Positions 1 through 62,304 of a stretch of DNA of 64,000 bases are shown here, one piece after another. A model generated the notes under the pieces. It did not search any database and was not told where the DNA came from. It worked only from the letters and a program-made list of their open reading frames with translations. The stretch spans positions 271,965-335,964 of the forward strand of contig CAVUGQ010000005.1 in assembly GCA_963741005.1 (NCBI GenBank). Direction: 5' to 3'. Both the position numbers and the translations under genes were made by a program. Origin of the DNA: Candidatus Bathyarchaeota archaeon (GTDB lineage: Archaea; Thermoproteota; Bathyarchaeia; Bathyarchaeales; Bathycorpusculaceae). Within the stretch, counting starts at the first letter, position 1; the number at the start of each line of letters is the position of its first letter.

Positions 1-312
1 TGTAAGTAATGTTGAAATGAGAGCCACGGCAGACACTTTTCTTTTCATATATTCCGACCCATGCGGTGGTTCTTGAAGTAAACTATTGAGATTGAAACAA
101 CAACCACAATTACCATCACAACAACTATTGCAGTTAGAAACGTTGAATTTGTCAACAAATAAGTCACAGTTGGATTTGCCGTTGGCAACGGGGCTTCTGA
201 TGGCGATGAATAGAGTGTTTGAGTGGGGGTAGCTGTTGGGTTGTTGGTCTGGTTTGAATGATTAATTTGTCCGTTATTTTCTGATACAGTAAAGTAGACT
301 TGGGAGTAGCCA

Positions 313-1179
313 TCAATTAGGAAAAAAGTTATTGAAATCGTAAGAGCCTCCTTGTGCCCTAATTTTTAGGCTGTGGTTGCCTTCAGGGAGAGTGGGCGCT
401 GTTATGGAAGTACTATATTGACTAATGCTGGGACCTTGAGTAAGAGTCCAATGCTCATACGGAATACTAACAGTTGTGTTATCTATGGTATACCATATAT
501 TAGCTATAACAGTACTTTTGAAGTATTGAGGCTGTTTAACACTAAAGCTGATGTTGAATGTGCCTGAGTAGTCAGTGCTGTTTTGGGGGCTACTTATTGA
601 AATGATTGGTGGCTTAGCATCTGATGGAGCATCCATCTGTTTAGCCAACCCAAAGGGATTAGCACTAGCTACACCAATTACTTGTGTTCCAACCAATACA
701 GAGATTGTTAGAAGTACAGCAAAGATAACTTGCCTTCCAGTGTTTGCTTCAAGGTGGCTTCTTGGATTAGGCATGGATGTTCTATTTTCCCATGTGTCCG
801 TTGAGGGGTCATAAACCTCGTTGACATTAGTAACATAGCCATCACTTTTAATGGTGGTTGCTCCGCCTATGCAGTAAATCTTGTTTTGGACGACCGCTAT
901 GCCAAACGAGCATCTGTGAGTAGGCATAGGTGTCTTGGAAGACCATGTGTTAGTTTCTGGGTCATAGACTTCATTGGTGCCAAGGATGTTTTGAGTACCG
1001 CTAATACCACCAATAGCGTAGATTTTTCCATCTACCACGGCTACGCCTAACATGCTTCTAGCGGTAGGCATAGGAGTCACCGACATCCAAGAATCCTCAG
1101 CAACGGCAGACACAGTTTTAACCTCCACCACACATAATCCCATAAGCAAGAAGAGAAGCAGAACAATGCTTTTTCTCAT
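313..1179 (-). pseudogene. Mosaic ORF. N-terminal signal peptide and about 3 Kelch-type blades (GKIYAIGG, NKIYCIGG) are fused in frame to a surface-family paralog lacking its own start (VIFAVLLTISVLVGTQVIGVASANP...). The expected C-terminal anchor (SISIVYFKNHRMGRN) is out of frame at about 40-100.
   Basis: Signal MRKSIVLLLFLLMGLCVVEV. The 3' half is about 60% identical to the 51965..52552 product (PPIISxxSPQNS, YTIDN). Reverse-complement translation of 41-100 gives a TM plus basic tail in another frame. Confidence 0.45.
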
Positions 1180-1772
1180 GCTTTACCTCCTAATTTCTGA
1201 CCACGTTTTTTGAAGTAAATCAACGAGATTGAAGCAACAGCTACTATTACAATCACGAAGGCTATTGCGATAAGATAAGTTGGGTTTAGCATTTCAGAAA
1301 ATAGAGTTTGATTTGAAGTTGGAGAGGGTGTTGGGGAACTGGGAGTATTAACGGCAAATGTCACTGAATTAGAAGAGTTTGTATAAAGCATTTTAGAGCC
1401 TTGGGAATAAGATGCTTGTGCAAGAACAGTTATGTTATGATTACCTTCTCCCAATGGAGGTAAAGTAACTGACCCATGTATTTCTGCAACATATGGATCC
1501 CATGAATCGCTGGCTGAAATCTGATATTCCAGTATGCTACTATTACCTCCATCCAAACTGTAAGTTGCAAAATAGTTAATATTATAATTATACCAAGCTG
1601 TAAAGTTAAAAACAATACTGAGGTTAGTACCTTGCTCATATATCATTTTTTGAGGTTCGACACTAATGTTAATAACAGAAGTGAATGGATAGCTTGCTTT
1701 TGAATAAGGAAGAACAGCTAAACATAGAGTAGTTAGGAGAATTAATAAGAGCAAAATCCCTTCACGCTTCAA
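1176..1772 (-). CDS. Secreted surface-family protein with C-terminal TM plus basic tail (IAIAFVIVIVAVASISLIYFKKRGQK)
   Basis: Signal peptide MKREGILLLLILLTTLCLAV, many N-x-S/T sequons, PTPSPT linker, C-terminal anchor. Stop overlaps the next start. Confidence 0.7.
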   Translation of the reverse strand: MKREGILLLLILLTTLCLAVLPYSKASYPFTSVINISVEPQKMIYEQGTNLSIVFNFTAWYNYNINYFATYSLDGGNSSILEYQISASDSWDPYVAEIHGSVTLPPLGEGNHNITVLAQASYSQGSKMLYTNSSNSVTFAVNTPSSPTPSPTSNQTLFSEMLNPTYLIAIAFVIVIVAVASISLIYFKKRGQKLGGKA

Positions 1773-1820
1773 TCTATTTCATCCCTGTTAGCAAGTGTAT
1801 TAGCTATAATTTAGCTCTCC

Positions 1821-2540
1821 TTAGAGAACAGTCTTTTCCTCTAAGAGAACAGCTACACCTCTCTTAGACTTACGCCTCTTAAAGTAAACCAATGAGATAG
1901 AAGCAACAACTAACAGAGTTATGACACTCAGGAATGGTAACTCTGGAGTTGTAGGAGTTGGAGTTGGATTCACTGCACTAGTGAAATAGATAGTGTCAGA
2001 GACAATAATTGGGTATTCATAGATTGGTTGCCCATCATAAATTGCCCCAGCCTTCTCATTTGAACCTGGATAATGTGAAAGGCTGTAGGTATGAGACGTT
2101 ACAGTTACGTTTAATGTATGCATGCCTGGGGTTGTTTGGTTTATCCAATCACAAATGCTATTTAATGAAAATTGGCCTCTTGGGTCATCAGGGTGAGTCG
2201 TAGTTTTGTTTCCATTAAAGTATTTGTCTATATGATATGCAGAGTAGTGAGCTGAAAGATTATCATCCAAACTAACTTCAACAGAATTTACTTCACCTAT
2301 ATAACGCCAAGGCCAATGGGTAGCATTCCAAGAATCTGGTTGTTTTACTGTAAAGTTTAGTGGTATGTTGGGTGTGTTGTATGTTGAATAATTTTGTGGT
2401 GCCATAATTGTGAGGCAAGGTTTTTCAAGGTTGGGGGTTTGTGTAAAAGGAACTGGATTAGCCTCTACCTCAACAACCTGTAGCCCAGCAAGTGCAAAAA
2501 TTACAAGCGTTACAGCAAATAAAGTATATTTTCTGTTCAT
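1821..2540 (-). CDS. Secreted surface-family protein, PEL-TM-RRK C-terminal sorting signal
   Basis: MNRKYTLFAVTLVIFALAGLQVVEVEANP signal. C-terminus TPTPTTPELPFLSVITLLVVASISLVYFKRRKSKR. Confidence 0.7.
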   Translation of the reverse strand: MNRKYTLFAVTLVIFALAGLQVVEVEANPVPFTQTPNLEKPCLTIMAPQNYSTYNTPNIPLNFTVKQPDSWNATHWPWRYIGEVNSVEVSLDDNLSAHYSAYHIDKYFNGNKTTTHPDDPRGQFSLNSICDWINQTTPGMHTLNVTVTSHTYSLSHYPGSNEKAGAIYDGQPIYEYPIIVSDTIYFTSAVNPTPTPTTPELPFLSVITLLVVASISLVYFKRRKSKRGVAVLLEEKTVL

Positions 2541-3129
2541 GGCTTCCCCTTTCTTCTCTTGAAGTAAAGTGACACACCAAGTAATGCAATGAAACTTATG
2601 CCAAAAGCAAATAAGAGTAACTCTTGCATTGGAAATTTGGTAGATGAGATAAAATAGAACTGCGCTGTCTGGGATAAGTAATTGGCATTCAGTATTCTAC
2701 TGCTTGAAAGCTGTACTCCCCAATAGATTGTTAGGGTATGATACCCTTCTGCCAAGTTAGCTATATAAAACTGACCAGTAAAGATGTGTCTTAAACTATC
2801 ATCTTCCCTCATCTGAACATTTTCAATCTTAATCCCTTGATTAGTCATATTTTTGCCATCTAACACATAGAAGAAGTCTCCATTCCAATACGTATCTTAT
2901 CTTGGTTAGCCTCTGAAAGGTAGAAGAAGCTGTTAGCAGTTGCATTAAACACAACATGGATTGATGAACTGCTGAAACTTGAAGAATTAGAAGGAGATTG
3001 GATAGTTATAGCTATCCCACCTACATATGGAGGAGGAAGAGGATTAGCTTCTACTTTCCCTATGGGTAACATCCCAACCAATATAGAGATAAGAAGTATT
3101 AATGCAAAGATGCTTATTCTTCTCTTCAT
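2537..3129 (-). pseudogene. Frameshifted surface-family gene, paralog of 53960..54655. Split into ORFs 2860..3129 (signal peptide half) and 2537..2866 (anchor half).
   Basis: N-terminus MKRRISIFALILLISILVGMLPIGKVEANP matches MKRRIALFAFILLMSVLIGVLPIGKVEANP of 53960..54655. The two ORFs overlap by 7 nt in different frames. Downstream half ends LYFKRRKGKP. Confidence 0.6.
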
Positions 3130-3803
3130 GCCTTCCCCTTTCTTCTTCTAAAGTAAAATAGAACACCTAATCCTATGACAACTGCAACGGATAATATGCC
3201 TATAGTGTAGCTTTGTTGGATAGCTATTAGTTTTTCTTGGAAAGCCTTTTGACTAGGGTTTACTGTTGACCATTGTGTTGGCTTTGTGCTTGGTGATGTT
3301 GAAGGTGCAGGTATATTATTTGGTATATCGCTTGAAAACTCTACGTAGAATTCAATTATTGTAGAGCCTACTGTTAAGTTATGCCAGCCTTTGGTTAAGT
3401 TTGGCAAAACAACGCTACCTTTTAGGGAATAAACGGCATATGGCAAATAATAGGGGTAATTTGTAATGGGAGAGGAAGGGTTAATTTCATCTCTAATCTC
3501 TTTGTATTTGATAACTTCTATTTCTGAGATTCTCTGTGACTCTCCGCCATCTATTTTGTAGTAAATATTATGATTAGCAGGGCTACTCTGAGAAATATAG
3601 GATGTTCTATGTTCTGCTGTGAAGTTAAAAATGACAGGGTTTGAGTAGTGGCTGTTGTTTTTTGGTGATTGAATGGTTACAGTGGTATAGCTTGGTTTCA
3701 TGCCCATAGGATTGGCTTTGGTAATTTCAATAACTTGTATTTCAACAACTAACGCTAAGATTGTTATTAGGATGATTGTTGTTGCCAATAGTTTCTTTGG
3801 CAT
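3126..3803 (-). CDS. Operon-leading surface-family protein (MPKKLLATT class) with C-terminal TM plus RRRKGKA
   Basis: MPKKLLATTIILITILALV signal. C-terminus VLFYFRRRKGKA. Conserved promoter block lies upstream at 3804-3877. Confidence 0.7.
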   Translation of the reverse strand: MPKKLLATTIILITILALVVEIQVIEITKANPMGMKPSYTTVTIQSPKNNSHYSNPVIFNFTAEHRTSYISQSSPANHNIYYKIDGGESQRISEIEVIKYKEIRDEINPSSPITNYPYYLPYAVYSLKGSVVLPNLTKGWHNLTVGSTIIEFYVEFSSDIPNNIPAPSTSPSTKPTQWSTVNPSQKAFQEKLIAIQQSYTIGILSVAVVIGLGVLFYFRRRKGKA

Positions 3804-3877
3804 ATATCGTTCCTGTTATATTATGTGAGTGAGTTTGCTTAAGTGGTTTTTTGTCAAACTTTCTTGTCTGGGGTTTG
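3804..3877 (-). promoter_or_regulatory. Conserved promoter/operator block of MPKKLLATT operons (palindrome GTCAAG-N4-CTTGAC, TTTGACAAAAAACCACTTAAGC, TAATATA box, leaderless ATG)
   Basis: Reverse complement is near-identical to 60661-60740, 62216-62304 and 51311-51365. Confidence 0.6.
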
Positions 3878-4510
3878 TCAAGTTTTCTTGACTTGGCGGT
3901 ACTTATGGATTAGAGCTACGGTAAGTATTGAGGCTAAAAGAGGCAGTATTATATACCAAGAAAACTCTGGAACAGAAGGAGTTGGGGTTGAATTAGCAGA
4001 TGAAGTGGGAGTTGGATTCATTTGGTATACAGATATAGGAGCACTTCTTCCTGTGTGACCATTTCCGTCGTTTACATAAACTACTATATCAGAGCCAGCC
4101 TCACTCATATTTATAAAACCTCTCCAACTGCCTTCAGTAAATGCACCTGACATGGATGGGCTGATTGTACCTTTACTTGCACTAAAGCTAACATAACCTG
4201 TAAAATTTCTGTCCCAATAACCATTAGCATAAAGTGCAAACAGTCCTACTTCAAAGGTTCTCCCCAAAGTGACATTACTTGGAACCAGAACACTAAAACC
4301 CCCAACTCCAGGGTCCTCTGGAACTGACAGTTCAGTTGTTTGAGGAAATGAAGGTGTAATGGTTACATTTGATGTAGATTGAATAGTGGTAGCCATAATA
4401 GCCATACTATGGTGGTGAAGGGGATTAGCATCTACTAACTCAACTGCTTGTATCCCAATCAACATTGACACAACAAGGATTAAAGCAAATACGGCATATC
4501 TTCTCTTCAT
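3878..4510 (-). CDS. Surface-family protein with HHH motif and PEF-CTERM-like tail (VPEFSWYIILPLLASILTVALIHKYRQVKKT)
   Basis: About 97% identical over most of its length to the 61598..62230 product, in inverted orientation. Signal MKRRYAVFALILVVSMLIGIQAVELVDANP. Confidence 0.75.
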   Translation of the reverse strand: MKRRYAVFALILVVSMLIGIQAVELVDANPLHHHSMAIMATTIQSTSNVTITPSFPQTTELSVPEDPGVGGFSVLVPSNVTLGRTFEVGLFALYANGYWDRNFTGYVSFSASKGTISPSMSGAFTEGSWRGFINMSEAGSDIVVYVNDGNGHTGRSAPISVYQMNPTPTSSANSTPTPSVPEFSWYIILPLLASILTVALIHKYRQVKKT

Positions 4511-5871
4511 TGTTTCCCCTTTCTTCTCCTAAAGTAAACCAAGGAGATTGAAGTGACAGCTATAACCACAATCACAGAAGCAATTGCAATAAGAGCAATT
4601 GAATTTACCCAATAATTAGAATCTATGCCTTGACTTGGAGTTGGAGAATCAAATAGTGGGTTTGTGGTTGGAGTTTCTGTAGTCTCAGTTGGTTTCATTG
4701 TAACAGTTGGAAAGGGTTTTCGTGTTGCGCTTGGTGGTGATTTGGCTGAGTCGGTGCTCATAATTTCTTGCTCTTCACTGCTAACAGAAAAAGTGAATTC
4801 GCCGTCACCGGTTTGAACAACTGAGCATACAATTCCGTTAATCGTGATGTTCCATTGTGGATTTCCAGCAAAATCAAGTTTAATCAAATTTCCAGGGAAT
4901 GACGGGTTAGGAAAGCCGCTTCCCAATGCGTATCCACCATCATTTGTTTGGATGGCAGAGTAGACTAAACCCTCAAATCCGAATTGACTATACGTTTGGT
5001 TCCACACTAAAGCGCCATTCAAATCAGTTTTAAGGATGCAAAGGCTACCGTTCAACACTGACGCTAAGATGTAGCCTCCATCGATTGTTTGAATAAATGA
5101 TTTAGGCTCAAAAAAAGCGCGATCCCAACTGTAGGTTTGTTTCCATAACATTTTTCCTGAGGCGTCAGTTTTGATCATCCAAATGCTTGCATTTGTCTTA
5201 TAAGGGTTAATTAATCCTAAGATTGCGTATCCGCCATCAATTGTTTGTACAACTGACACGCCTTCGCTCGCCTCCTGATTGGCGTACGTTTGATTCCATT
5301 CGGTATAGCCATTTGAATTTAGCTTCCCCAGCCAGCATGCTTTGCCAGTGGAGCTAACCATTGCGAAGCCACCATCACTGGTCACAATTAACGCTTTTCC
5401 GCCATTTAGGTTATTGTAAGTTTGATTCCACAAAATATTGCCCATGCTATCAGTCTTTATAATACCGACCCCCTTGTTGAAGTTGCCTGCAAGCGCATAT
5501 CCTCCATCTGGAGTTTGCACAAGCGAGGTCACATCACCCGAGATTAGGCTGTTCCAATCATTGTTTTTCATTTGGCTAAAGTAGGGTTGAATCCATTGCT
5601 GGTTACCCGCATAGTCCAGCTTAACAAGCCAAGGACCTATGTTTGCAAGGCTAAGTACCGCAGATTTGCCAGCTAATGCGTAGCCTCCATCGCTGGTTTG
5701 AATCATACAATTACCTGAGTACGAATTGGCAAAATCACCCAATTTGAGCGTTTTCTGCCATACAATCGCAGGAGCCGAAGAAGCTGAATCAGCCAAAACC
5801 AAGCACGCTTGAGCTGAAATCGTTATGCATAGAAGTGCGAAAACAATGATTGCTACATGTCTGATTCGCAT
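4507..5871 (-). CDS. Secreted beta-propeller-like repeat protein (about 7 repeats containing QT-DGGYALAG / W-QTY) with T/P linker and C-terminal TM-RRRKGKQ anchor
   Basis: Repeats QTSDGGYALAG, QTPDGGYALAG, VTSDGGFAMVSS, QTIDGGYAILG, QTIDGGYILAS, QTNDGGYALGS. C-terminus SISLVYFRRRKGKQ. Confidence 0.7.
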   Translation of the reverse strand: MRIRHVAIIVFALLCITISAQACLVLADSASSAPAIVWQKTLKLGDFANSYSGNCMIQTSDGGYALAGKSAVLSLANIGPWLVKLDYAGNQQWIQPYFSQMKNNDWNSLISGDVTSLVQTPDGGYALAGNFNKGVGIIKTDSMGNILWNQTYNNLNGGKALIVTSDGGFAMVSSTGKACWLGKLNSNGYTEWNQTYANQEASEGVSVVQTIDGGYAILGLINPYKTNASIWMIKTDASGKMLWKQTYSWDRAFFEPKSFIQTIDGGYILASVLNGSLCILKTDLNGALVWNQTYSQFGFEGLVYSAIQTNDGGYALGSGFPNPSFPGNLIKLDFAGNPQWNITINGIVCSVVQTGDGEFTFSVSSEEQEIMSTDSAKSPPSATRKPFPTVTMKPTETTETPTTNPLFDSPTPSQGIDSNYWVNSIALIAIASVIVVIAVTSISLVYFRRRKGKQ

Positions 5872-5934
5872 GATTACTACTTGAGATAGGTCGCTATAAA
5901 AGACTTTTTGTAAAAGTCTTCTTGATTGGGTTTG

Positions 5935-7167
5935 TCAAGGTTTCTGCACATTAGCAGTCTTTCTACGCCTAATTACAAGAGCAATGGTAAGCGTTACGGC
6001 AAACATGGGTAAAATAGCTGACCAAGATAGCTCTGGAACAGGAGTGGGACTTGGTGTAGTGACAGATGGTGCAGTGGTGCTGGCTATCCAACCCTCGCCA
6101 GGAGAAGTTATGGATCTTGAACCGGCAAGTACATAATCGTTACCATTTTGAATTACGGCGTATGTTCCATCATATGGCAGGAACCATTGTATTTTTCCAG
6201 AAGCTTCAATCTTTGTTATGCCTGATTCAACAGCTACCGCGTAGCTGCCGTCGTTTGTTTTGATGATAGAATGAACTGAAGTTTCGTTAACCTGATTGTA
6301 GGTTTGATTCCAAACAATGGCACCGGTAGAGTCAAACTTAACCAAACATAAAGTCTGGTCTACTATACCTGCTATAATGTAGTCGTTATCTTCTGCCTGA
6401 ATTACTCCAGTTCCTTGGTCATCTTTGGGGGTGCCATAAGTTCGGTTCCACAGCATTGTTCCCGAGGAGTCAGTTTTAACTAGCCACATATCCCACGTGT
6501 CTGTAACATGGGAATACGTTGAACCTGCAATCACATAGCCGCTGTCAACAGTTTGAACCAATGAACCAGCCAGTTCATCGTTTGAGCCACCATAAGTTTG
6601 GACCCACTTTGTATCACCTTTGGAATTGATTTTAGCTAACCAAAAACCTCCTCCATGGAGGCTTCCGGACATTGCATATTCGTTATCGGATGTTTTTATT
6701 ATGGTTCTCAATGATACGTTGTTGTATGAGTGTTTCCACTGAACATTGCCTAAAGCATCCGTCTTAACTAGATCAGCACAAATAAAAATGTAACCGCTAT
6801 CGTTAGCTTGAATAATAGAAGTTACTTGTCCCAAGTTTAGGTAAGCATCGCTTAAGCCCTGTTCCCACACTTTGTTGCCTGAGGAGTCAAGTTTGAGGAG
6901 CCAAGAATTACTTGTAGTTTGCCCAGGTATTCCCAATTCAACTACATATCCACCTAACACATAGCCGCCATCAACGGTGGCGGTCATTGCCTCAATTCCA
7001 CAATAGGTGCCATAAGTATAGGTTTTACTCGACTCAATTGTTGGCAAAGCAACAGATTGGGCTAAAACAAAATTCGAAGAGTGCAGAACGGTTGATGCTA
7101 ATGTGAGAGTTAAAATTAAAACAAACAAGAAAATGCTGCGATTTGCCATGTTTAAAAGATGGGACAA
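5935..7167 (-). CDS. Secreted beta-propeller-like repeat protein, paralog of 4507..5871, PEL-TM-RRRK tail
   Basis: Repeats VDGGYVLGGY, QANDSGYIF, QTVDSGYVIAGS, KTNDGSYAVAV. C-terminus VPELSWSAILPMFAVTLTIALVIRRRKT. Confidence 0.7.
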   Translation of the reverse strand: MSHLLNMANRSIFLFVLILTLTLASTVLHSSNFVLAQSVALPTIESSKTYTYGTYCGIEAMTATVDGGYVLGGYVVELGIPGQTTSNSWLLKLDSSGNKVWEQGLSDAYLNLGQVTSIIQANDSGYIFICADLVKTDALGNVQWKHSYNNVSLRTIIKTSDNEYAMSGSLHGGGFWLAKINSKGDTKWVQTYGGSNDELAGSLVQTVDSGYVIAGSTYSHVTDTWDMWLVKTDSSGTMLWNRTYGTPKDDQGTGVIQAEDNDYIIAGIVDQTLCLVKFDSTGAIVWNQTYNQVNETSVHSIIKTNDGSYAVAVESGITKIEASGKIQWFLPYDGTYAVIQNGNDYVLAGSRSITSPGEGWIASTTAPSVTTPSPTPVPELSWSAILPMFAVTLTIALVIRRRKTANVQKP

Positions 7168-7204
7168 GCAGTCTATTGAGTTTTTTGATTGATTTTATTC
7201 AGAG

Positions 7205-10375: not shown

Positions 10376-11359
10376 TTAAACGTTCGGTTTGTTTTGAAAG
10401 ATAGTTTTTCGATGCCTTCTATAAATTAACAAAACAAAACTTAAGGCAACAACTACCGCTATAAGAGCAATTATTAGAATTTGTTCGTTAACGGTTATCA
10501 TGGTCGGGGCTGGTGTAGGACTTGGCAAAGGTGTCGGTAACGGACTTTGTGACGGCAAAGGCAAAAACGCAGCAGTTTTCATTAAGTAAATAAAACCCCA
10601 ATATCCTTGATTCAAATAAGAGTTTGCAATGCCCAGACATGCAAGTGCTCCATCCGATGTTTCAATGATGGAAAATATTTTAAAAGGAAAAGTGATGGTA
10701 CCATTATAATAATTGGCAGGACCTGAATAAGTAAAATTCTCAATCCATTGCGTATCGTTATTTGAATCTGTTTTCACAAGAGTAGGAAAAGAAACAAAGG
10801 TAGGAAAAAGATTTACATTTGCTGGTTCAAAGTAAACGAACCCGCCATCGCTGGTTTGAATATTGGGTGAGGCAATGGCTAAGTTTAAGACCGTACTTGT
10901 ATTTTCATACCATTGAATACCCCCTTTTGAATCCAATTTTATCAGTGTAGGCGTAAACTGAAGGGGTATGCCTTGTGCGTTGCCATAATTGCTCCATTCT
11001 CCTGCTATTTCATATCCGCCATCGCTGGTCTGAATGAGGTTTGATGCATGAAATAAATTGATAGTTTTATTCCATTGCATGCTACCTAAAGAATCAAGCC
11101 TGTAAAGAGTTGAAGGAATAAAAAGGGATTGTTGGTAGGATTTGCCGCAATCTAAAAATGCGTATCCACCATCAATTGTTTGAATCAAGTTAGAAACTGA
11201 CTCAGTACTTCCCGACCCATATAATTTTTGCCATTGAGTGGCAGGAGGTGATGTGCTGCTTGAGGTTTGGGCTGAAACTAAAGTAAATTGAAGAATTATT
11301 AAGGACATTATGAAAACAGCGACAAGAAATGAATCGAAACTCTTACCTAAACTACGCAT
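10376..11359 (-). CDS. Secreted beta-propeller-like repeat protein (QT-DGGY repeats) with PT-rich linker and C-terminal TM plus basic tail
   Basis: QTIDGGYAFLDCG, QTSDGGYEIAGE, QTSDGGFVYFEP. C-terminus ILIIALIAVVVALSFVLLIYRRHRK. Confidence 0.65.
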   Translation of the reverse strand: MRSLGKSFDSFLVAVFIMSLIILQFTLVSAQTSSSTSPPATQWQKLYGSGSTESVSNLIQTIDGGYAFLDCGKSYQQSLFIPSTLYRLDSLGSMQWNKTINLFHASNLIQTSDGGYEIAGEWSNYGNAQGIPLQFTPTLIKLDSKGGIQWYENTSTVLNLAIASPNIQTSDGGFVYFEPANVNLFPTFVSFPTLVKTDSNNDTQWIENFTYSGPANYYNGTITFPFKIFSIIETSDGALACLGIANSYLNQGYWGFIYLMKTAAFLPLPSQSPLPTPLPSPTPAPTMITVNEQILIIALIAVVVALSFVLLIYRRHRKTIFQNKPNV

Positions 11360-14711: not shown

Positions 14712-15584
14712 CTACTTACTCAAGTCAGCGGTTTTTCGATGACTTCTAAAAAGTAGTAATGACAGAGCAACAATAATAGCTAGGAAGACTGCAACAACCG
14801 CAATTAATGTATTCAAAGGTACAGAAATTGGATTGCCAGTTGAGTTAGTTGTAGTTGGTGTTGAAGTAGGTGTTATGGCTGGATTCGACGATGACGTTGG
14901 GCTTGGTGAATTGGCACTTAACGGAGTGTTAGCAGGTATGTTTATTGTTTGTGTGTTGCTCCAATCGCTTGCTTTACCGGAAAAAAAATATGGAAAAAAT
15001 GGAGGATCACTGCCATTTCGACCGATTTGACCTATCATTGCTTGAACGTGGATATCGGTTTGTGTTCCTGCAAGACTCCCCACGCCCATTTGACCTTCTA
15101 TGTTGATTGTTGTAGTTGTATACTCAGAATTAGAGGGCACAAGGTACCCGTAATATGCATTGTAAATATCGGTCCACTGATCGGATAAATGCGGCTTAAC
15201 TTGAATGTTGTAGTAGAAGCCAAAAGCACCGATAAGATGTGCGTTGCTGTAATCAAATACAAGTGGTTGATTCTTAATTGTTAATTCTACCGCGCTGTAT
15301 TCATTACTGTAGCCAATGTTAGCTACAATCTGTCCTGTATTTTGGTCTAACTGGTAAGTTGTAGGTTGAGTGTAAGGAGGACCGACAAGCTGTACGGTGA
15401 ATGTTGGAACAGAAGGTCTAGGTATAGGAACAGGGGAAGCTGTAGGTGTCTGAGCACTTGCAGGGTTAACCATTATTATGCAAGAGACTGCCAAGATGAC
15501 CACAAGAAGTAACGAGACCCCCTTGCTTGTACTGCCCATGCTTAATCTTAGGAATGGTTTGCAGATAAAAGACTTCTCGTACAA
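14712..15584 (-). CDS. Secreted surface protein with C-terminal TM plus basic tail, paralog of 15660..16337
   Basis: Shared SDWSNTQTINIP and VQAMIG blocks. C-terminus LIAVVAVFLAIIVALSLLLFRSHRKTADLSK. Conserved promoter GAAGTCTTTTATC lies upstream. Confidence 0.65.
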   Translation of the reverse strand: MYEKSFICKPFLRLSMGSTSKGVSLLLVVILAVSCIIMVNPASAQTPTASPVPIPRPSVPTFTVQLVGPPYTQPTTYQLDQNTGQIVANIGYSNEYSAVELTIKNQPLVFDYSNAHLIGAFGFYYNIQVKPHLSDQWTDIYNAYYGYLVPSNSEYTTTTINIEGQMGVGSLAGTQTDIHVQAMIGQIGRNGSDPPFFPYFFSGKASDWSNTQTINIPANTPLSANSPSPTSSSNPAITPTSTPTTTNSTGNPISVPLNTLIAVVAVFLAIIVALSLLLFRSHRKTADLSK

Positions 15585-15659
15585 GACTCTTAACTAAAGT
15601 CAGTTAAAGTTTTTTGACTAACAAACAGAGGGTAGGTATACGCTTGCTTGGGAAAAGGT

Positions 15660-16337
15660 CTACTTACTCAATGAAGCGGTTTTTCGATGCTTAAGTATCA
15701 CGGCAATAGCGCATACCCCAAATATCAAAGGTATAACCACTAAAGATGATATCTCAGGAACTGTAGGGGTTGGTGTTGGATTTGGTGAGGGTGAGATTGT
15801 AGGGATAGTTTCAGGTATGTTTATTGTTTGTGTGTTGCTCCAATCGCTTGTTTCGCCCACAAACACATAGGGCATGAACCCGTTTTTGAAGGCGCCTCTG
15901 TCGCGGTGCCCAATCATAGCTTGAACCTGAAACGCGACTTCGCCAGACTTAGGGATAACGCCTACTCCTTGGCTGGTGTCCCTTGGATAATAAATCGTTT
16001 CCCCAGCAACATATGTCAACACTGTAGTGGAGGAGTTTGACTGCTGCGGATACCAGTCTTCTGCGTCTTCCACGTGGTAGAGTTCACTCCAGTTTTTGCC
16101 GTCGACACTTATGGCTACGTTGTAGAAGAATCCGTCGGGGTATTGGCTTGCGGCGTCGAAGGGTTGGTTTCTTATTGTTAGGGTTATGGTGGTTGTGTTG
16201 GCTTGGGTTTGTATGGTGAATTCTGGTATGGATGGTTTAGGTACTGACTGAGCATATGCAGTTTTAACTATAATTATGCTTGTGACTGCTAAGATAACAA
16301 CAAAAAGTAACGAGAACCCTTTGGTTATACTGCCCAT
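15660..16337 (-). CDS. Secreted surface protein with PEI-TM-KHRK tail, paralog of 14712..15584
   Basis: C-terminus VPEISSLVVIPLIFGVCAIAVILKHRKTASLSK. Same promoter motif at 16338-16395. Confidence 0.65.
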   Translation of the reverse strand: MGSITKGFSLLFVVILAVTSIIIVKTAYAQSVPKPSIPEFTIQTQANTTTITLTIRNQPFDAASQYPDGFFYNVAISVDGKNWSELYHVEDAEDWYPQQSNSSTTVLTYVAGETIYYPRDTSQGVGVIPKSGEVAFQVQAMIGHRDRGAFKNGFMPYVFVGETSDWSNTQTINIPETIPTISPSPNPTPTPTVPEISSLVVIPLIFGVCAIAVILKHRKTASLSK

Positions 16338-24796: not shown

Positions 24797-24827
24797 AATG
24801 TACCTATAAGATGAACATAAACTAATA

Positions 24828-36646: not shown

Positions 36647-37715
36647 ATGAGAAAAAGCCTCGCTTCACTGCTGATTCTTCTGTTCTTAACCTCTTTGGTT
36701 GCTTTGCCATCTGCTACAGTGAAGGCTGAATCTAAAACAATAGTCGTACCAGACGATTCTCCCACTATTCAGGAAGCCATCAACGCTGCCGACGCTGGAG
36801 ACACAATATTCGTTAAGAGAGGCACTTATGTGGAAAATCCAGTGGTTAACAAATCGGTCTCATTGATTGGAGAGGACAGGGATTCAACCGTTATTGATGT
36901 GACGGCAGGGTTAAAGGTGCAAAGCAACAACGTGACCATAGCAGGCTTAACTATTTTATGACGGGTATGACGGGATATCATTAGCTACAAACTACTGCAA
37001 TATTTCAGGAAACAAGATTACAAATACAACTCATGGGATAGTAGTATTCGGTTACGAGAATTATATATCAGGAAACATTTTTGAATCAATCGGGCTTTCA
37101 TCAGCAATCCAACTGAACTTTGCAAACAGGAATTTGATAAATAATAACTATATTGACTCATGTGTTGAGGGAATTCAGATTTGGCAAAACAGCAATAACA
37201 ACACAGTTGCAGAAAACACTATCACTAACATTAAAGCTACAGCCATTGGTTTTCAGTACTCAAACTATAATAAAATAACTGGAAATAATATTTCCTATTC
37301 AGACCTTGGAACAGCAATCTATGGCTCTAGCTGGAACACCATATCTAACAACAACTACTTTTATAATAAAGTCCAGTTTGGAGCTAATGAATGGTACTAC
37401 CTAACTTGGGGAGGTAATCGTTCTATAAACACCATTAATGAAAACTATTGGAGCGACTACAACGGAACGGATGCCAATAGAGATGGCATCGGTGATACAC
37501 CCTACATCATAGACGCATACAACCAAGATAATAATCCAATTATGTTGCCGATTTTGGTTACATTGCCCAATTCTGGGCCAACTTCATCTCCAACTTCTTC
37601 ACCTTCAATCCCAGAGTTCCCATCATGGATAATTCTATCGATGCTTAGCATAATAGTGGCAATTGTTGGCTTGTTGGTTTACTTCAAGAAACGCAAATCC
37701 TATTATGGCAAATAG
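36647..37715 (+). pseudogene. Right-handed beta-helix (NosD/pectate-lyase-like repeats) surface protein with PEF-CTERM tail, disrupted by a +1 frameshift at about 36950-36962 within a tandem TATGACGGG TATGACGGG
   Basis: ORF 36647..36961 (signal plus first beta-helix turns) and an open frame 36951..37715 (NNTVAENTITNIKATAIGF... IPEFPSWIILSMLSIIVAIVGLLVYFKKRK). Confidence 0.6.
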
Positions 37716-50889: not shown

Positions 50890-51310
50890 GAGGTGAACTA
50901 GGCATGGAAGTTGAACGTAATAAGTTGGGTAAAACAGTTTCGGATTACCGTTGCAGCTGTGGGCATCTGCATGTTTCTTTGTTTGTTAATAGTTACGTGT
51001 TGAAGCGGTGTTACAGGTGCGGCAAAAAAGACAGCTGGAAATAAGTTTTTAGGCTTCTCTTTTTTTATTCATTTTATCTTATGCCTTAGCGGATAGCTTT
51101 TTCGTTGTCTTTCTCTACTAAAATAAACTCGTAAACTGTAACGATTGTGTATGGGTTATTGCATTTGATTATCTATTTTTTGGTATATGCCCAAATACTC
51201 TCATTGTCATTAGGAATTAGTTTAGGAGGTGTCCTTTTCCAGCGATGTGGGTACCAACTTTCTACTTATTTTCTGGTATTTAAGAAACTTTACTAACTTT
51301 AGACAAGATA

Positions 51311-51365
51311 GTTTGACAAAAACCACTTAAGCAAACTCAATCTCATAATATAGCAGGAATGGTAT
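51311..51365 (+). promoter_or_regulatory. Conserved MPKKLLATT-operon promoter block
   Basis: gtttgacaaaaaccacttaagcaaactcaatctcataatatagcagg. Confidence 0.6.
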
Positions 51366-51968
51366 ATGCCAAAGAAACTTTTGGCAACAACAGTCATCTT
51401 GGCTCTAATATTTGTTTATTGCCAAGTTCCATTGTCTACTGCAAACTTTATCCCAACAAAAGCTGAAATTGATATTTTCTCTCTATTATTCTATCCAATG
51501 CCTTCAAACATGAGTGATTATGACCTGAGCATTTACCAAACCCTGTTTGCAACAGTAAGAGTCCCATTAAATGCCCCACAGAATTATCAAGAAATATACC
51601 ATATTTACTACTGTTTAGATGGTCATCCAGCAATAGAGTTTTCCAATGTAAGTAAGTCTGAAAAAGAGTGGTTTAGCGGCAGTGCTATGCATTATTTTGC
51701 AAATGCAAGTTTAAGTAATTTGGAAAAAGGGAACCATACAATAAGGGTTTATACTCAAGGAACTAAAGAAGGATTGTCAGCTTCAAGGGAGTTTACATTA
51801 AACACTTCTCTGGTTTCTATCTCTGCATCTCCAAATTCAAATCAAAATCAAGCATCTACCATCCTGTCTAATCCAATATTGCCCACTGCAATAGCTACTG
51901 TGATTGTGATAGTAGCTGTTGTTTTAGTTTCGTTGGTTTACTTTAGGAGAAGAAGGGGAAAACCATGA
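51366..51968 (+). CDS. Operon-leading surface-family protein (MPKKLLATT), C-terminal TM plus RRRRGKP
   Basis: C-terminus TVIVIVAVVLVSLVYFRRRRGKP. Confidence 0.7.
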   Translation: MPKKLLATTVILALIFVYCQVPLSTANFIPTKAEIDIFSLLFYPMPSNMSDYDLSIYQTLFATVRVPLNAPQNYQEIYHIYYCLDGHPAIEFSNVSKSEKEWFSGSAMHYFANASLSNLEKGNHTIRVYTQGTKEGLSASREFTLNTSLVSISASPNSNQNQASTILSNPILPTAIATVIVIVAVVLVSLVYFRRRRGKP

Positions 51969-52552
51969 TAAGAAAATTTGCCGTATTTGCTGTAGTGTTT
52001 GTAGTTTCAATATTGATTGGGATACAAGCAGTTGAAGTAGTAGATGCTAATCCCTTCACATTATGGAAAAAGACTGACACTCCACCAGATGCCATACCGC
52101 CAATAATTTCTGTCACCAGTCCACAAAACAGCAGTATCTATCCAAGTTCATTCAACATCAATTTTACTATAAATAAGCCGCAATATGGCGAATACGATTC
52201 CAGCATCATTAAGGTAAGCTATACAATAGATAATGTAACTGTGCGTCCTTATTCTATTTGGAGCTCTAATACTAATGGAATTCCTCAGTTTGAAACTGTC
52301 TTCAGAGAACCTTCCTTAAGTGAGGGCAACCATACTCTGATAGTTGAGGCAGAAGGGGTTGTCTACCTTCCAAACTTCCAACTCTTCTTTGAAAATAGCA
52401 CTGCAATAGTCTTCTTTACCGTCCACAATCAAACATTTGTTAACTATCTATTCAACCAAACAGTTCTTACTCCAATAGTGATAATAAGTATAATAGTTGT
52501 TGTTGCTTCTGTCACTCTGGTTTACTTTAGAAGACGGAAGGTACAACCATGA
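51965..52552 (+). CDS. Surface-family protein
   Basis: MIRKFAVFAVVFVVSILIGIQAVEVVDANP ... LVYFRRRKVQP. Confidence 0.7.
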   Translation: MIRKFAVFAVVFVVSILIGIQAVEVVDANPFTLWKKTDTPPDAIPPIISVTSPQNSSIYPSSFNINFTINKPQYGEYDSSIIKVSYTIDNVTVRPYSIWSSNTNGIPQFETVFREPSLSEGNHTLIVEAEGVVYLPNFQLFFENSTAIVFFTVHNQTFVNYLFNQTVLTPIVIISIIVVVASVTLVYFRRRKVQP

Positions 52553-53253
52553 AGAGAAGATATGCTGTATTTGCTGTAATCTTTGCAGTCTCAGTATTGA
52601 TTGGGATACAAGCAGTTGAGGTAGTCAAGGCTAATCCTATGACTTTTCCCACAAGCACCTCTCCCCCAGATAGCGTTACTCTTACCATTACCGTTGATTC
52701 TCCCAAGCAAAACACATCGTACTCTAATGGAACAATTAACGTTTGCTTCAATAAAACAATCAACAGCCCCAACGGCATTTCAACGAGTACAAATATCATC
52801 AGCACTTATCAGGGAGATTGGATGAAAGACAGCCGATGGTGCCCTTTTCCCGCTGACGTTGACCGCTTCGCAACATACCATTTCCTGCAGTATAACTTTA
52901 ACATCACCGACATACCAGTTGGCGAGCATACACTAAACATAACAGCACAAGGACAAGGCGGCTTTAACAAAAATAATACCGAATATTCTTTTACCTTTCA
53001 AAAAACAGTATCAATAAAATTCTCAATCATCAGTTCAAATCAACCCTCAGGAACATCACCACCAACAACAACTATACTCTCTTCAACCACTACGACTCCA
53101 GAACTTCCTTCGCCAACTCCAAATCAAAAAATAGGTTCTGATTATTGGATAAATCCAACAGCCCTTGCAACTACAGTTATCGTGATTGTAATAGTGGCTG
53201 TTGCTTCAATCTCACTGGTTTACTTCAAGAAGCATGGAGGTCGCAACAAATGA
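52549..53253 (+). CDS. Surface-family protein
   Basis: MKRRYAVFAVIFAVSVLIGIQAVEVVKANP ... TPELPSPTP...SLVYFKKHGGRNK. Confidence 0.7.
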   Translation: MKRRYAVFAVIFAVSVLIGIQAVEVVKANPMTFPTSTSPPDSVTLTITVDSPKQNTSYSNGTINVCFNKTINSPNGISTSTNIISTYQGDWMKDSRWCPFPADVDRFATYHFLQYNFNITDIPVGEHTLNITAQGQGGFNKNNTEYSFTFQKTVSIKFSIISSNQPSGTSPPTTTILSSTTTTPELPSPTPNQKIGSDYWINPTALATTVIVIVIVAVASISLVYFKKHGGRNK

Positions 53254-53963
53254 AGAGAGCGTCGCAGGCATTAACAATTTTATTGGCACTCTCAGTCCCA
53301 ATGTTATCTGCTAGTTTGTTTGTTCACGTTGTAAGCGCGAACCCATTTATGCCAAGCGGTTCTTGGTCCGATGAGCCTATCCCACCTTCAATCAGCATTC
53401 AATCGCCTACTGAGTCACTTAATTATTGGAATGGAAGTGATGTATGGCTTAATTTCACAGTAGCAGAACCTCTAACAAACTGGTACAGTACTGGATCAAT
53501 TAGTTATCCTGACTACTATGCAACTACTTTGGGAAATTTAACTCAGGTCTCATTTTCCATAGACGGCAAACAGGAGAACAATGTAAGCAAAATTTCTGAA
53601 TCACCGCTGAAAAGTTACAAAGTATACAATCCTATGAGTGGGTTATTGCATTTTTCAGTCAATTTGGGGCGGTTACCTGTCGGGCAGCATAAAATAAACA
53701 TTACAGCAGATGGGTCAGCGTATTATGGCAATCTAACGCATAGTGCTTTTTCTGATTCCTTTCCAATTGACACTGATAAAAGTGACAAAACCAAGTTTCT
53801 CAGTAGCTCATTGCAGAGAAACTTTGTCATAGATGATTTTGCCCCAATTACTTTCATGGCGCCTTTTCCAACTGCATCTGTGGCAATTGTTTCATCTGTT
53901 GGGGTAGCGGTTGTAGGTGTTGGTTTGTTGGTTTACTTTAAGAGAAAGAGAGGTAAACAATGA
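53252..53963 (+). CDS. Surface-family protein. Start taken at MKRASQALTILLALS; the ORF-track start at 53145 overlaps the previous gene.
   Basis: Signal plus ANP. C-terminus FPTASVAIVSSVGVAVVGVGLLVYFKRKRGKQ. Confidence 0.65.
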
Positions 53964-54655
53964 AGAGAAGGATAGCTCTTTTTGCGTTTATACTTCTAAT
54001 GTCTGTATTGATTGGGGTATTGCCAATTGGGAAAGTGGAAGCTAATCCAATTAATCAAAAAGCTGGATATGAAGTTATCACAATAGATAGCCCTCAGGGT
54101 CTGACTTTTTCATCCTCAAACAGTGTAACCTTAACTTTTAAGTGTCATACTAACTTTGTTGCCAACTACCTTTCATATTGCTATACTATGGATGGGTCTG
54201 GAGCTACCCTTTATGGTAATGTTTGGCACCAAATGCTCAAGGTTGCACAAAAAATTATCAATCAAACTGTGATATCTAATGACACTTCAAATTCTAGAAC
54301 TGAACCCTACCTGCCGTACACAGATTATGAAATTGAGATTAAAGCAATATTATCCTCTCTTAGAGATGGGAATCACAGGATGAGCCTTTACAGGGGACCT
54401 AACTATGACTTCTCTGGAGCTGTTTATTCTCCTGTCCTTAATGTTTCCTTTACTGTTAATACTTCTGCTGATGGAACAAAAAACTTGAGGCTATCCAAAA
54501 TATCGCCAGACACAACTCCAACTCCCTCTCAATCATTGCCCTCAAATTTCCCAACCCCAACAGTCTCAGAATTCCCATTAGGAGGGGTTATTTCCATCTT
54601 AGTTGTTGCTTCTGTCTCATTGGTTTACTTTAAGAGAAGTAAGGGGAAGCCATGA
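53960..54655 (+). CDS. Surface-family protein
   Basis: MKRRIALFAF... VSEFPLGGVISILVVASVSLVYFKRSKGKP. Confidence 0.7.
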   Translation: MKRRIALFAFILLMSVLIGVLPIGKVEANPINQKAGYEVITIDSPQGLTFSSSNSVTLTFKCHTNFVANYLSYCYTMDGSGATLYGNVWHQMLKVAQKIINQTVISNDTSNSRTEPYLPYTDYEIEIKAILSSLRDGNHRMSLYRGPNYDFSGAVYSPVLNVSFTVNTSADGTKNLRLSKISPDTTPTPSQSLPSNFPTPTVSEFPLGGVISILVVASVSLVYFKRSKGKP

Positions 54656-55491
54656 TTCGAAGATATGCTGTATTTGCTGTAATCTTTGCAGTCTCAGCAT
54701 TAATTGGGATACAAGCAGTTGAGGTGGCAGATGCTAATCCTACTTGGGGAACCTCTGCAACTCCAATACCTCCTATCACTGACCCTCCACAAATAATCAT
54801 AACCTCCCCAAACTCAATAGAATACGATAATCCTGTTCCTTTAAACATAACAATAATTCAACCAGACTCATGGATATCAAAAACCAATATGCATTATCCA
54901 CCAAATTCATATGTGGATAATTCGGATAGCGTAGTTGTTGGACAAAACAAATTAAAATCAATAACTTGCATTATTGATGGACAATCAATTATCCTCTGGA
55001 ATGGTACACCAATAGGTAGTTCTGCAGTTAATAATGCAGTTACCTATTATATGCCAAGAATAACACAGTTTTCAGCAATCATGAATCTAAGCAAAGGGCA
55101 ACATAACTTGCAAGTAAATGTTATTGCAGTATCAGACTATGTTACAGAAGGCATCATCCCATTTGCACAAAAGGAGTACATTATTTCAGCTAACCAAAGT
55201 ACAACATTTAATGTCAATAGTAATTCAGATTCTATCTTTTCTCCAACAATAGATAGCATAAAAAGTTCATATGCAATTTGGCAAACTTCAGACTCAACAC
55301 CTTCACCAACTCCAAACCCTACTCCAACAGCAAGCACACTCACACCAACACCTACAGGTATTGAAGTAGATACTGGTGATTCAAGAATGTTAAACCAAAC
55401 AACTCTTACTGCAATAGCTTTTGTGATTGCAATAGTGGCTGTTGCCTTTGTTTCATTGGTTTACTTTAAGAGAAGAAAGGGGAAGCCATGA
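54652..55491 (+). CDS. Surface-family protein
   Basis: MIRRYAVFAVIFAVSALIGIQAVEVADANP ... VYFKRRKGKP. Confidence 0.7.
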   Translation: MIRRYAVFAVIFAVSALIGIQAVEVADANPTWGTSATPIPPITDPPQIIITSPNSIEYDNPVPLNITIIQPDSWISKTNMHYPPNSYVDNSDSVVVGQNKLKSITCIIDGQSIILWNGTPIGSSAVNNAVTYYMPRITQFSAIMNLSKGQHNLQVNVIAVSDYVTEGIIPFAQKEYIISANQSTTFNVNSNSDSIFSPTIDSIKSSYAIWQTSDSTPSPTPNPTPTASTLTPTPTGIEVDTGDSRMLNQTTLTAIAFVIAIVAVAFVSLVYFKRRKGKP

Positions 55492-56297
55492 AGAGAAGCT
55501 ATGTTGAATTTGCAGGAGTCTTTGCTCTTCTTTTAGTTGTTGGGATTCAAGTTGTTGAGGCCCAAACGGTACAATCATCATCGGTTTTGGCTAGCCACTT
55601 TGATGTTGACTTAGTCTATGCATATACTACAGGCACCTACGCTGCAATGGCTATCGTTAATTTCACGCGTATTCCTAACCAAACGATTTCTACAGACGGC
55701 GTAAGTGATGTGTACACATTAGAGCTTTATTCCAACGGTCAAATTATAGGTAGCCGTTTAATCGGATGCACAATTGGCGATGGTCCGTCTTTGGATTATA
55801 TGATGGGTATAAGTATGAGTGTCGGTCATTTCGGTTTACAGTCAGTAAGATCTGCAGAGGATCGATTGGGGTTAACAACATGGGATATTCCTTATGATCC
55901 ACCTTATCCTAGCTTTGTTGAACCGCTAGATGTGAAGTTGATTAAAACAGGTTGGGTTGTAGTTGAGGGAAATTACACTTGGTCTAGTTTGAATCGCCAT
56001 GAAGTGATCGAGGAGGTACATCTGGTTCAGTTCCAGGACGGCTACTTATACAACAATCTTGTGCCTCAGGAACAGCTAAATGACCCAAAACATCCACCGA
56101 TACCAACTAGTCAAATTTCACCCACCCCAAGCAGTATGCCTACTTCAAATGTGTCTCCAACCCCAAAAACAGTTTCTTTACTCGCGTTAACACCTGTTTT
56201 AAAAATAGCCATAGTCATAATATCCATAGTATTAATGGCTGTCATAGGTGCAAGTTTACTGGTTTACTTTAAGAAACGCAGACGTGAAGCTTTATGA
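55488..56297 (+). CDS. Surface-family protein
   Basis: Signal plus C-terminus LLVYFKKRRREAL. Confidence 0.65.
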   Translation: MKRSYVEFAGVFALLLVVGIQVVEAQTVQSSSVLASHFDVDLVYAYTTGTYAAMAIVNFTRIPNQTISTDGVSDVYTLELYSNGQIIGSRLIGCTIGDGPSLDYMMGISMSVGHFGLQSVRSAEDRLGLTTWDIPYDPPYPSFVEPLDVKLIKTGWVVVEGNYTWSSLNRHEVIEEVHLVQFQDGYLYNNLVPQEQLNDPKHPPIPTSQISPTPSSMPTSNVSPTPKTVSLLALTPVLKIAIVIISIVLMAVIGASLLVYFKKRRREAL

Positions 56298-60660: not shown

Positions 60661-60740
60661 CCTTGACAAATCCCAGTCAAGGAAGTTTGACAAAAAACCA
60701 CTTAAGCAAACTCACTCACATAACATAACAGGAACGTCAC
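60661..60740 (+). promoter_or_regulatory. Conserved MPKKLLATT-operon promoter block with palindrome CCTTGAC-N8-GTCAAGG
   Basis: Read directly. Confidence 0.6.
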
Positions 60741-62230: not shown

Positions 62231-62304
62231 CAAACCCCAGAAAAGAAAGTTTGACAAAAAACCACTTAAGCTAACTCAATCACATAATATAGCAGGAACG
62301 ATAT
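62216..62304 (+). promoter_or_regulatory. Conserved promoter block with GTCAAGaaaaCTTGAC palindrome
   Basis: Read directly. Mirror of 3804-3877. Confidence 0.6.

Follow-up and report, generated by a model that had tools for sequence, protein, structure and literature searches.

How are the more than two dozen secreted proteins encoded in a 64,000-nt stretch of DNA from Candidatus Bathyarchaeota archaeon (assembly GCA_963741005.1, contig CAVUGQ010000005.1, positions 271,965 to 335,964; the whole stretch is hereafter called the window) held at the cell surface, and why are their ends so much more alike than their bodies? The first-pass annotation of this DNA took the proteins for an archaeosortase-processed surface coat with C-terminal signals of the PEF-CTERM type. 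Analysis of the window together with 15 related loci, retrieved by scanning one genome per species with a 9-sequence alignment, leads us, with moderate confidence, to another answer: the genes appear to belong to an undescribed, very large Bathyarchaeota-specific family of type I membrane-anchored, N-glycosylated surface proteins with immunoglobulin (Ig)-like domains, encoded in translationally coupled arrays whose junction modules would favor the exchange of gene bodies as cassettes.

Open reading frame (ORF) calls yield 25-27 genes for secreted, C-terminally anchored proteins in the window, the range reflecting the way in which split genes are counted. One array occupies the minus strand (1-7149) and the other the plus strand (51366-64000), with a head-tail provirus in between, and transcription of both arrays is directed outward from the window center. 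The original description of more than 25 genes in two mirrored clusters thus holds, given the opposite strands and a 771-nt inverted repeat with 95 % identity, and so does the mention of further members at 10376, 14712, 15660 and 37134: 4-5 anchored genes lie between the arrays (10376, 14712, 15660 and 36647-37715). Nearly all members start with a basic and then hydrophobic segment and end with a hydrophobic helix capped by a basic cluster, the helix being preceded by a region rich in Thr, Pro and Ser. ATGA overlaps were seen at 14 gene junctions, with most genes overlapping a neighbor, and all four genes of the window with an MPKK-type leader open an operon, both as first noticed. The claims on shared parts stood only in part. 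The two leaders initially quoted (QAVEVVDANP- and MPKKLLATT-type) are present on only about 14 window genes, the remainder having different Sec-type leaders; a PE(F/L/I) or xEF motif occurs at the helix edge in 8 of the 26 window tails and a strict VYFKRRKGKP-type end in about 10; and the bodies do differ as stated, but a single Ig-like domain is common to 17 of the 27 proteins.

The family extends far beyond the window. A profile built from 21 members retrieved 3,317 representatives of 50%-identity clusters at E <= 0.001, 1,377 of them at E <= 1e-10, and the product of gene 54652-55491 alone has 141 relatives at E <= 0.001, the named one coming from Candidatus Bathyarchaeota. Fourteen of the 15 related loci belong to Candidatus Bathyarchaeota metagenome-assembled genomes (MAGs) of one long-read project (isolates MFD...), and one locus (L004) packs at least 18 family genes into 20 kb. 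Two proteins apparently identical to window products (same length, same printed ends) are encoded on one 797,683-bp NCBI/ENA contig, and a 95 % identical relative of a window protein on a contig of 2,096,218 bp.

The leaders show the features expected of Sec substrates of signal peptidase I, namely a basic n-region, a hydrophobic h-region and small residues at -3 and -1. Specifically, A, V, T or S at -3 and A at -1, followed by N-P, are found in 225 of the 274 full-length family proteins (82 %), at a median position of 29, which suggests cleavage by signal peptidase I at this site. Glycosylation sequons (N-X-S/T) occur at 2.29 per 100 amino acids (aa) in 22 array proteins versus 0.67 in 40 other ORFs of the window, and in 500 shuffles of the array proteins, which preserve their composition, the mean density was lower by a factor of 2.1 (z = 9.4). 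The heavy sequon decoration reported at first is therefore real, and the mature proteins are likely to be N-glycosylated.

No Pfam or NCBIfam family covers the family proteins, for which only weak matches to Big_7, Big_13 and Ig_J were obtained; the Pfam gathering score of Big_7 (PF17957), 24.1 bits, was not reached. Nevertheless, a hidden Markov model (HMM) built from bodies only detects the Ig-like domain in the 17 proteins mentioned above. The AlphaFold model of the 54652-55491 product (92 sequences; mean predicted local distance difference test score, pLDDT, 77.6) consists of an N-terminal helix (3-26), a beta-sandwich (47-205, mostly with pLDDT >90), a disordered linker (215-248) and a C-terminal helix (250-275); a Foldseek search with this model found no solved structure at E <= 0.001. 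The non-Ig bodies include beta-propellers with DGGY repeats (4507, 5935 and 10376), a Kelch fragment (45-1179) and a NosD-like beta-helix (36647-37715), the rest being unassigned. The SBBP-propeller model of NCBIfam matches one member of the set (3e-7), presumably one of the DGGY-repeat proteins. What unites the family is thus its address labels rather more than its bodies.

The repeated DNA of the arrays corresponds to the junctions between genes and not to the bodies (repeats D1 and D2). The junction unit, about 190 nt that run from the tail of a gene into the leader of its downstream neighbor, is present in seven copies with 61-81 % identity and contains the sequence TTG GTT TAC TTT AAG AGA AGA AAG GGG AAG CCA TGA AGA GAA GA. 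Here, the RRKGKP codons (AGA AGA AAG GGG AAG CCA TGA) provide both a purine-rich, Shine-Dalgarno-like stretch and the ATG of the following gene. Among 79 genes of the window and the 15 related loci, an ATGA-overlapping downstream gene follows 30 of the 32 tails ending in RKGKx-stop versus 7 of the 47 other tails (Fisher p = 8e-13); none of the 14 MPKK leaders lies behind an overlapping gene, and all five KSKTA-type tails belong to the last gene of an operon. Leader class and tail class therefore follow operon position. At residues that are identical between paralogues, the same codon is used in a fraction of 0.60 of the cases in leaders and 0.54 in tails, compared with 0.39 in bodies, where codon usage predicts 0.36-0.38; among five MKRRYAVFAV leaders, the fraction rises to 0.81. 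Synonymous sites are thus saturated in the bodies but not in the junctions, so that selection at the protein level alone is insufficient to account for the conservation.

Upstream of every MPKK gene there is an element of about 95 nt that is conserved between different MAGs (14-sequence alignment) and consists of two TTGACAAA boxes, an invariant ACTTAAGCAAAC, then CATAATATA and AGGA. The first MPKK codons themselves (AUG CCA AAG AAA CUN UUG GCA) can form an invariant 6-bp hairpin, UGCCAA(N8)UUGGCA, over the start codon, with z-scores of -1.2 to -3.2; it was the only RNA structure found in the MPKK 5' region, and no covariation was detected in it. Element and start-codon hairpin together span 51278-51400, 60653-60775, 62217-62339 and, on the minus strand, 3769-3891 of the window, and the combination recurs in loci L003, L004, L007, L011, L012 and L015.

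The arrays also contain probable traces of exchange. In the 771-nt inverted copy, the body is 98.6 % identical and the leader only about 83 %, and the tract ends inside the flanking junction modules, on one side within the upstream tail and on the other about 12 codons into the downstream MPKK gene. One body (ANPTWG), followed through 70 full-length orthologues, is combined with four or more classes of leader and five or more classes of tail, the tails being PEF-type in 26 cases, VYFKRR-type in 10, HRKT-type in six, VYFNKHK-type in four and of other kinds in 20. Furthermore, gene 45-1179 is a Kelch gene fused in frame to an internal family leader. These observations are consistent with a shuffling of bodies as cassettes by recombination or gene conversion within the junction modules, and the same process is the likely cause of the junction conservation.

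The C-terminal tails bear on the kind of anchor involved. We scanned ten representative window tails with NCBIfam models (cut-offs of 23 bits for PEF-CTERM, TIGR03024; 19.9 for Loki-CTERM, NF033507; and 15.9 for LPXTG, TIGR01167), the comparison with PEF-CTERM models having been suggested in the first-pass annotation itself. The best TIGR03024 score was 16.7 bits, for the tail of 3878-4510, with the others at 10.5-14.6 and several tails without a match; eight full-length homologues with clear PEF tails and two hybrid tails gave 11.3-13.2 bits or no match. Loki-CTERM reached at most 17.6 bits with window tails and 15.5 with PEF-bearing homologues. Two tails barely reached the LPXTG model (16.2 and 16.0 bits), the match being confined to profile positions 11-33, that is, to the helix and the basic part, and the LPXTG motif is absent from both. 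With scores below threshold, the tails of the family as a whole fail the PEF-CTERM-type models. A PE[FLIV] or xEF motif at the helix edge is present in 43 of the 193 family tails (22 %) and absent from 150 (78 %). Hence neither the assignment of the tails to PEF-CTERM nor, with the sorting models below cut-off (the marginal LPXTG matches aside) and most tails devoid of the motif, the archaeosortase-processed coat can be maintained as originally put. Where the helix of the majority tail begins on the outer side, no signature motif is conserved. Conservation instead resides in the cytoplasmic end, which is coupled to the overlapping start of the gene that follows, and should therefore not be taken for a sorting signal.

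Nor did the screens turn up a processing enzyme. An exosortase-family protein was not found among the polytopic ORFs of the window and the 15 related loci in a Pfam screen, which returned Rce1-like and presenilin-like proteins (the latter a protease at L014:5674-6585), DUF996/998 proteins and transporters, and the exosortase family is absent from the Pfam lists of the genes of L022 and L023 and of the contig that carries P0014 (gene list only). Reports of archaeosortases come from only part of the Euryarchaeota, and Sulfolobales, which lack such an enzyme, use a C-terminal membrane helix to hold SlaB in place (PMC6098224). PEF-CTERM is paired with ArtC (PMC5244752, citing Haft et al. 2012). 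We found no link to archaeosortases in the literature on Bathyarchaeia, Bathyarchaeota and Thermoproteota. In a related MAG, a CPBP/Rce1-like intramembrane protease gene (L002:19603-20454) lies directly downstream of the gene for an anchored surface protein of 995 aa, where a family array ends, a single case; CPBP proteases serve as sorting enzymes in other systems (10.1101/2023.06.07.544157).

With an anchor that fails the PEF-CTERM test, the family is best seen as a hitherto undescribed, though rather ordinary, type of archaeal surface family. In the mechanism that we favor, the proteins would be exported by means of the Sec-type leader, cut by signal peptidase I after the near-invariant (A/V)-x-A just ahead of N-P, N-glycosylated at many sequons and displayed on a disordered Thr/Pro/Ser stalk, while the C-terminal helix of most members would stay in the membrane, followed by a short basic cytoplasmic stub. 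A helix so retained would by itself anchor most members, which would then require no archaeosortase. The ectodomain is usually one Ig-like beta-sandwich, although the same labels are also found on beta-propellers, a Kelch domain and a beta-helix. Operons would begin with an MPKK gene behind a conserved promoter and the 5' element, continue with ATGA-overlapping internal genes and close with a gene that has a KSKTA-type tail. The RRKGKP codons would serve at once as stop-transfer residues, as a Shine-Dalgarno-like sequence and as the overlapping start of the next gene. Gene conversion or recombination, the simplest explanation, would hold the junctions similar among paralogues, and the bodies would thereby become exchangeable as cassettes between positions and arrays.

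Several points weigh against this interpretation. Retention of the membrane helix is predicted from sequence features, and the leader cleavage sites were judged by rule rather than by a dedicated predictor. PEF-CTERM and Loki-CTERM, although below threshold, rank among the top NCBIfam matches, and in a minority of the tails (the 8 of 26 in the window) PEF or PEL abuts the helix right after the Thr/Pro linker, which gives them a sortase-type look. The recurrent pre-helix motifs LPVELNP, YLLNQTxL and NYWVNP could be unrecognized signature motifs. The failure to find an archaeosortase applies to about 0.4 Mb of related DNA, short of a whole genome, and does not imply absence from the genome. Finally, a function at the RNA or translation level could lie behind the synonymous conservation of the junctions.

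The alternative that survives best is a mixed one, in which only the minority tail VPEFSW..ILPL..RKRK is of the sortase type and is processed by a divergent archaeosortase or another intramembrane protease, whereas the majority of the tails are plain anchors and the two types are swapped on the same ectodomains. This is possible, if less than probable. PE[FL] is about 20-fold enriched in the tails (4.4 versus 0.2 per 1000 aa in the rest of the proteins), and the consensus of the PEF-class tails, PT.TP.VPEFSWL.ILPLFL..RKRK, is sharp and has the full tripartite look of a sortase-type signal, so archaeosortase-like processing of this subset is possible. The 26 PEF-type and 10 VYFKRR-type tails on one and the same body would fit such swapping; protein P0002, with a PEFSW-type tail, is encoded on the same 797,683-bp contig as the two proteins apparently identical to window products; and the CPBP/Rce1-like protease gene adjoins one array (L002). 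On the other hand, the PEFSW tails, too, fall below the TIGR03024 cut-off, no source was found in which they are annotated as PEF-CTERM (a profile search with these tails returned mostly short fragments, the named ones all from Bathyarchaeota, with no such annotation among them), and no candidate enzyme is linked to them, the adjacency of the CPBP gene being an isolated case. A bolder version, which we hold only tentatively, is that Bathyarchaeota have a C-terminal sorting system of their own, outside Euryarchaeota, with the VPEFSW tail as a new sortase-type signal that is processed by an unrecognized archaeosortase or other intramembrane protease and swapped with plain anchors via the 190-nt junctions, the arrays being recombination-driven cassettes for surface remodeling, possibly under pressure from viruses like the provirus between them.

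That every tail is a PEF-CTERM-type signal, at which an ArtC/ArtE-like archaeosortase would cut off the membrane helix and add a lipid, appears improbable. Such a system would account for the tripartite succession of Thr/Pro linker, helix and C-terminal basic cluster, for the presence of C-terminal sorting models among the best NCBIfam matches and for unrelated ectodomain folds with a common tail, which are typical of sorting-signal systems. It is contradicted by the model scores, by the 78 % of tails without PE[FLIV] or xEF, by the strongest conservation residing in the very part that would be discarded, where the overlapping start of the next gene explains it, by the negative enzyme screens of the window, the 15 related loci and the Pfam lists for L022, L023 and the P0014 contig, and by the confinement of archaeosortases in the literature to Euryarchaeota (PMC6098224).

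Class III (prepilin-type) leaders, which would make the proteins pilin-like fiber subunits, are very unlikely, even though the N-terminus is indeed basic and followed by a long hydrophobic helix: the MKRRY-AVFAV and MPKKLLATT leaders lack a [KR]-[GAS] site ahead of the hydrophobic stretch (the residues there are RRY-A), the classic (A/V)-x-A|N-P site of 82 % of the members comes after that stretch, which led us to reject the class III reading of the leaders, and a second, C-terminal membrane anchor is foreign to pilins.

The provirus at 7600-47100 raises the additional question of whether the family is viral. The provirus terminase is 74-78 % identical to terminases of IMG/VR contigs, and tblastn found no counterpart in these related contigs for three blocks of the provirus (9.3-16.9, 20.4-29.3 and 35.1-39.3 kb), which look like cargo islands and into which all anchored genes of the virus region fall. 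Within 10 kb of the terminase, the related viral contigs were free of ORFs that combine a membrane helix at the C-terminus with a basic tail, and a scan of IMG/VR with the leader patterns of the family yielded no relative. Introduction of the family by the provirus, for which the 4-5 anchored genes within its region would speak, thus has next to nothing to recommend it, as these IMG/VR and viral-contig negatives and the presence of arrays in many Bathyarchaeota chromosomal contigs indicate that the family is cellular and that the provirus picked up similar genes as cargo. Other features of the provirus are an island at 20937-29461 that holds a gene for an ArsR-like helix-turn-helix protein and two large genes for PAS histidine kinases, of which one includes a receiver domain; a pair of direct repeats, each about 200 nt long, on either side of this kinase island (21915-22117 and 29257-29461; 85-92 % identical), the second reaching into the beginning of the DUF2213 gene; another direct repeat, of 163 nt (82 % identical), at 7212-7374, near the left end of the provirus, and 13616-13778, in the first cargo island; and, at 44329-47085, four tandem paralogues (219-233 aa), the first without a Pfam match, after a large tail-region gene that contains Laminin_G_3.

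Table 1. Family genes, upstream elements, repeats and provirus markers of the 64,000-nt window
Feature	Position	Strand	Evidence
Start of family gene, leader MKRKVSAVALISTLLT, continues past left window edge	1..48	-	Translation; ATG at 48 overlaps stop of upstream tail frame
Chimeric, frameshifted member: own signal peptide and Kelch repeats, internal family leader (VGTQVIGVASANP), Ig-like body	45..1179	-	Kelch_1 5e-28; body HMM E = 1e-12
Ig-like body, tail IYFKKRGQKLGGKA; ATGA overlap with next gene, AGGAGG before it	1176..1772	-	ORF, junction sequence, body HMM
Leader MNRKYTLFAV..VEANP, Ig-like body, tail TPELPF..VYFKRRKSKRG	1821..2540	-	Body HMM E = 3e-40
Frameshift-split member, paralogue of 53960-54655 (leader half 2860-3129, anchor half 2537-2866)	2537..3129	-	ORF calls
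MPKK-class, operon-first gene, tail FYFRRRKGKA	3126..3803	-	ORF, junction sequence
Inverted repeat, 771 nt, 95 % identity	3772-4542 / 61566-62336	inverted	Repeat comparison (I1)
MPKK upstream element, partly overlapping end of 3878-4510	3804..3900	-	Repeats D5, I2, I12
PEFSW-type tail (VPEFSWYIILPLL..KYRQVKKT), inverted near-duplicate of 61598-62230	3878..4510	-	Repeat comparison
DGGY-repeat beta-propeller body, tail VYFRRRKGKQ	4507..5871	-	Without Pfam match
DGGY-repeat beta-propeller body, tail VPELSW..IRRRK	5935..7149	-	ORF, tail scan
Anchored DGGY-repeat beta-propeller in provirus cargo island, different leader, tail YRRHRKT	10376..11359	-	No counterpart in related viral contigs
Two anchored paralogues (14712-15539, 15660-16337), HRKT-type tails, VPEISS at helix edge in one	14712..16337	-	Repeats D15-D17
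Terminase	17379-18644		Provirus marker
Portal	18626-20416		Provirus marker
DUF2213 protein	29358-30413		Provirus marker
HK97-like capsid protein	31539-32432		Provirus marker
NosD-like beta-helix, signal peptide, tail IPEFPSW..VYFKKRK, frameshift near 36960	36647..37715	+	Intact homologue L002:8104-9189
MPKK upstream element	51278..51365	+	Repeat D5, alignment
Nine-gene operon with eight ATGA overlaps: 51366 (MPKK), 51965, 52549, 53250, 53960, 54652, 55488, 56294, 57142	51366..57618	+	ORF calls, repeats D1, D2, D4, D6
Stand-alone anchored member, leader LQAVSATAENP, tail VRRRTSSRDSK	57806..58393	+	Without Pfam match
MPKK upstream element before 60741-61601	60653..60740	+	Alignment
MPKK gene, two Ig-like repeats	60741..61601	+	Body HMM
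PEFSW-tail gene, ATGA overlap with 60741-61601	61598..62230	+	ORF, repeat comparison
MPKK upstream element before 62305-62916	62231..62916, together with the gene	+	Alignment
MPKK gene, tail FKWAKAKTA	62305..62916	+	ORF calls
Member with VRANP leader, truncated by window end	63196..64000	+	Translation

The features of the window are collected in Table 1, to which a few details can be added. The last gene (57142) of the nine-gene operon has the operon-terminal KSKTA tail, and a homologue of the pair at 14712-16337 is located within an array in L009, with the leader MKRSYAAF. Three family genes are interrupted by frameshifts (45-1179, 2537-3129 and 36647-37715). In the first of these, the stalk, the membrane helix and the tail YFKNHRMGRNI lie in a different reading frame (45-365); the split at 2537-3129 may reflect a pseudogene or a Nanopore indel, and all three may be either pseudogenes or products of long-read indel errors. 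In L023, from the same sequencing project, uvrA and uvrB are each broken into several pieces. The spacers between family operons of the window contain an overlapping UPF0175 and DUF3368 gene pair (59043-59875) that may be toxin-antitoxin-like, as well as an Rfam match to DUF3800-X RNA on the minus strand (60049-60121; 53.7 bits versus a gathering score of 38.2).

In overall design, the family resembles the substrates of PEF-CTERM/archaeosortase C and PGF-CTERM/archaeosortase A (Haft et al. 2012, cited through PMC5244752 and PMC6098224), with which it shares a Sec leader, Ig-like and other ectodomains, a Thr/Ser/Pro linker, a C-terminal helix with a basic cluster and the use of one tail on many unrelated ectodomains, including a PEF/PEL minority. 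Unlike those substrates, the family misses the curated HMMs, most of its tails are devoid of a signature motif and are conserved at their cytoplasmic end instead, the DNA screened here yielded no cognate enzyme, and the hosts are Bathyarchaeota rather than Euryarchaeota. With SlaB of Sulfolobales (PMC6098224), it has in common a signal peptide, one or more beta-sandwich ectodomains, a C-terminal helix and a lineage without a known archaeosortase; it differs in its smaller size (about 160-290 aa), in a Thr/Pro stalk in place of a coiled coil and in the dozens of co-transcribed paralogues per genome. This likeness is one of architecture and does not imply that the family supports a surface layer. 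The only matches of the family profile in the PDB were to the mucin-like type I membrane glycoproteins CD46 and beta-dystroglycan and to the C-terminal region of the Haloferax volcanii cell surface glycoprotein (E = 0.0065, 0.095 and 0.16), all with a membrane helix and basic stub behind a Ser/Thr/Pro stalk; being weak, composition-driven and confined to stalk and helix, these matches speak for analogy rather than homology.

Elsewhere, too, there are multigene surface families whose ends are conserved and whose middles vary, such as the RIFIN and STEVOR proteins of Plasmodium and the variable lipoproteins of Mycoplasma. They share with the Bathyarchaeota family the arrangement of genes in arrays, the mutual similarity of signal and anchor regions and a fast divergence of the ectodomains. 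The RIFIN and STEVOR models gave chance-level matches to the family tails. In contrast to these systems, the family genes are co-transcribed and translationally coupled, with no switching mechanism evident in the arrays, so that the whole set is probably expressed together and not singly.

Bathyarchaeota rank among the most abundant sediment and soil archaea, and to our knowledge, very little is known about their cell envelope. Given up to 18 genes in 20 kb and more than 3,000 clusters at 50 % identity, the family described here is probably a main component of the cell surface, the one that is presented to substrates, partners and viruses. The similarity of leaders and tails, which at first suggested a sorting signal, would be due to a single junction module, held similar as DNA, in which both the ribosome-binding site and the start codon of the following gene are embedded. 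The minority PEFSW tail, for its part, is a testable candidate for a sorting system in a lineage for which none is known.

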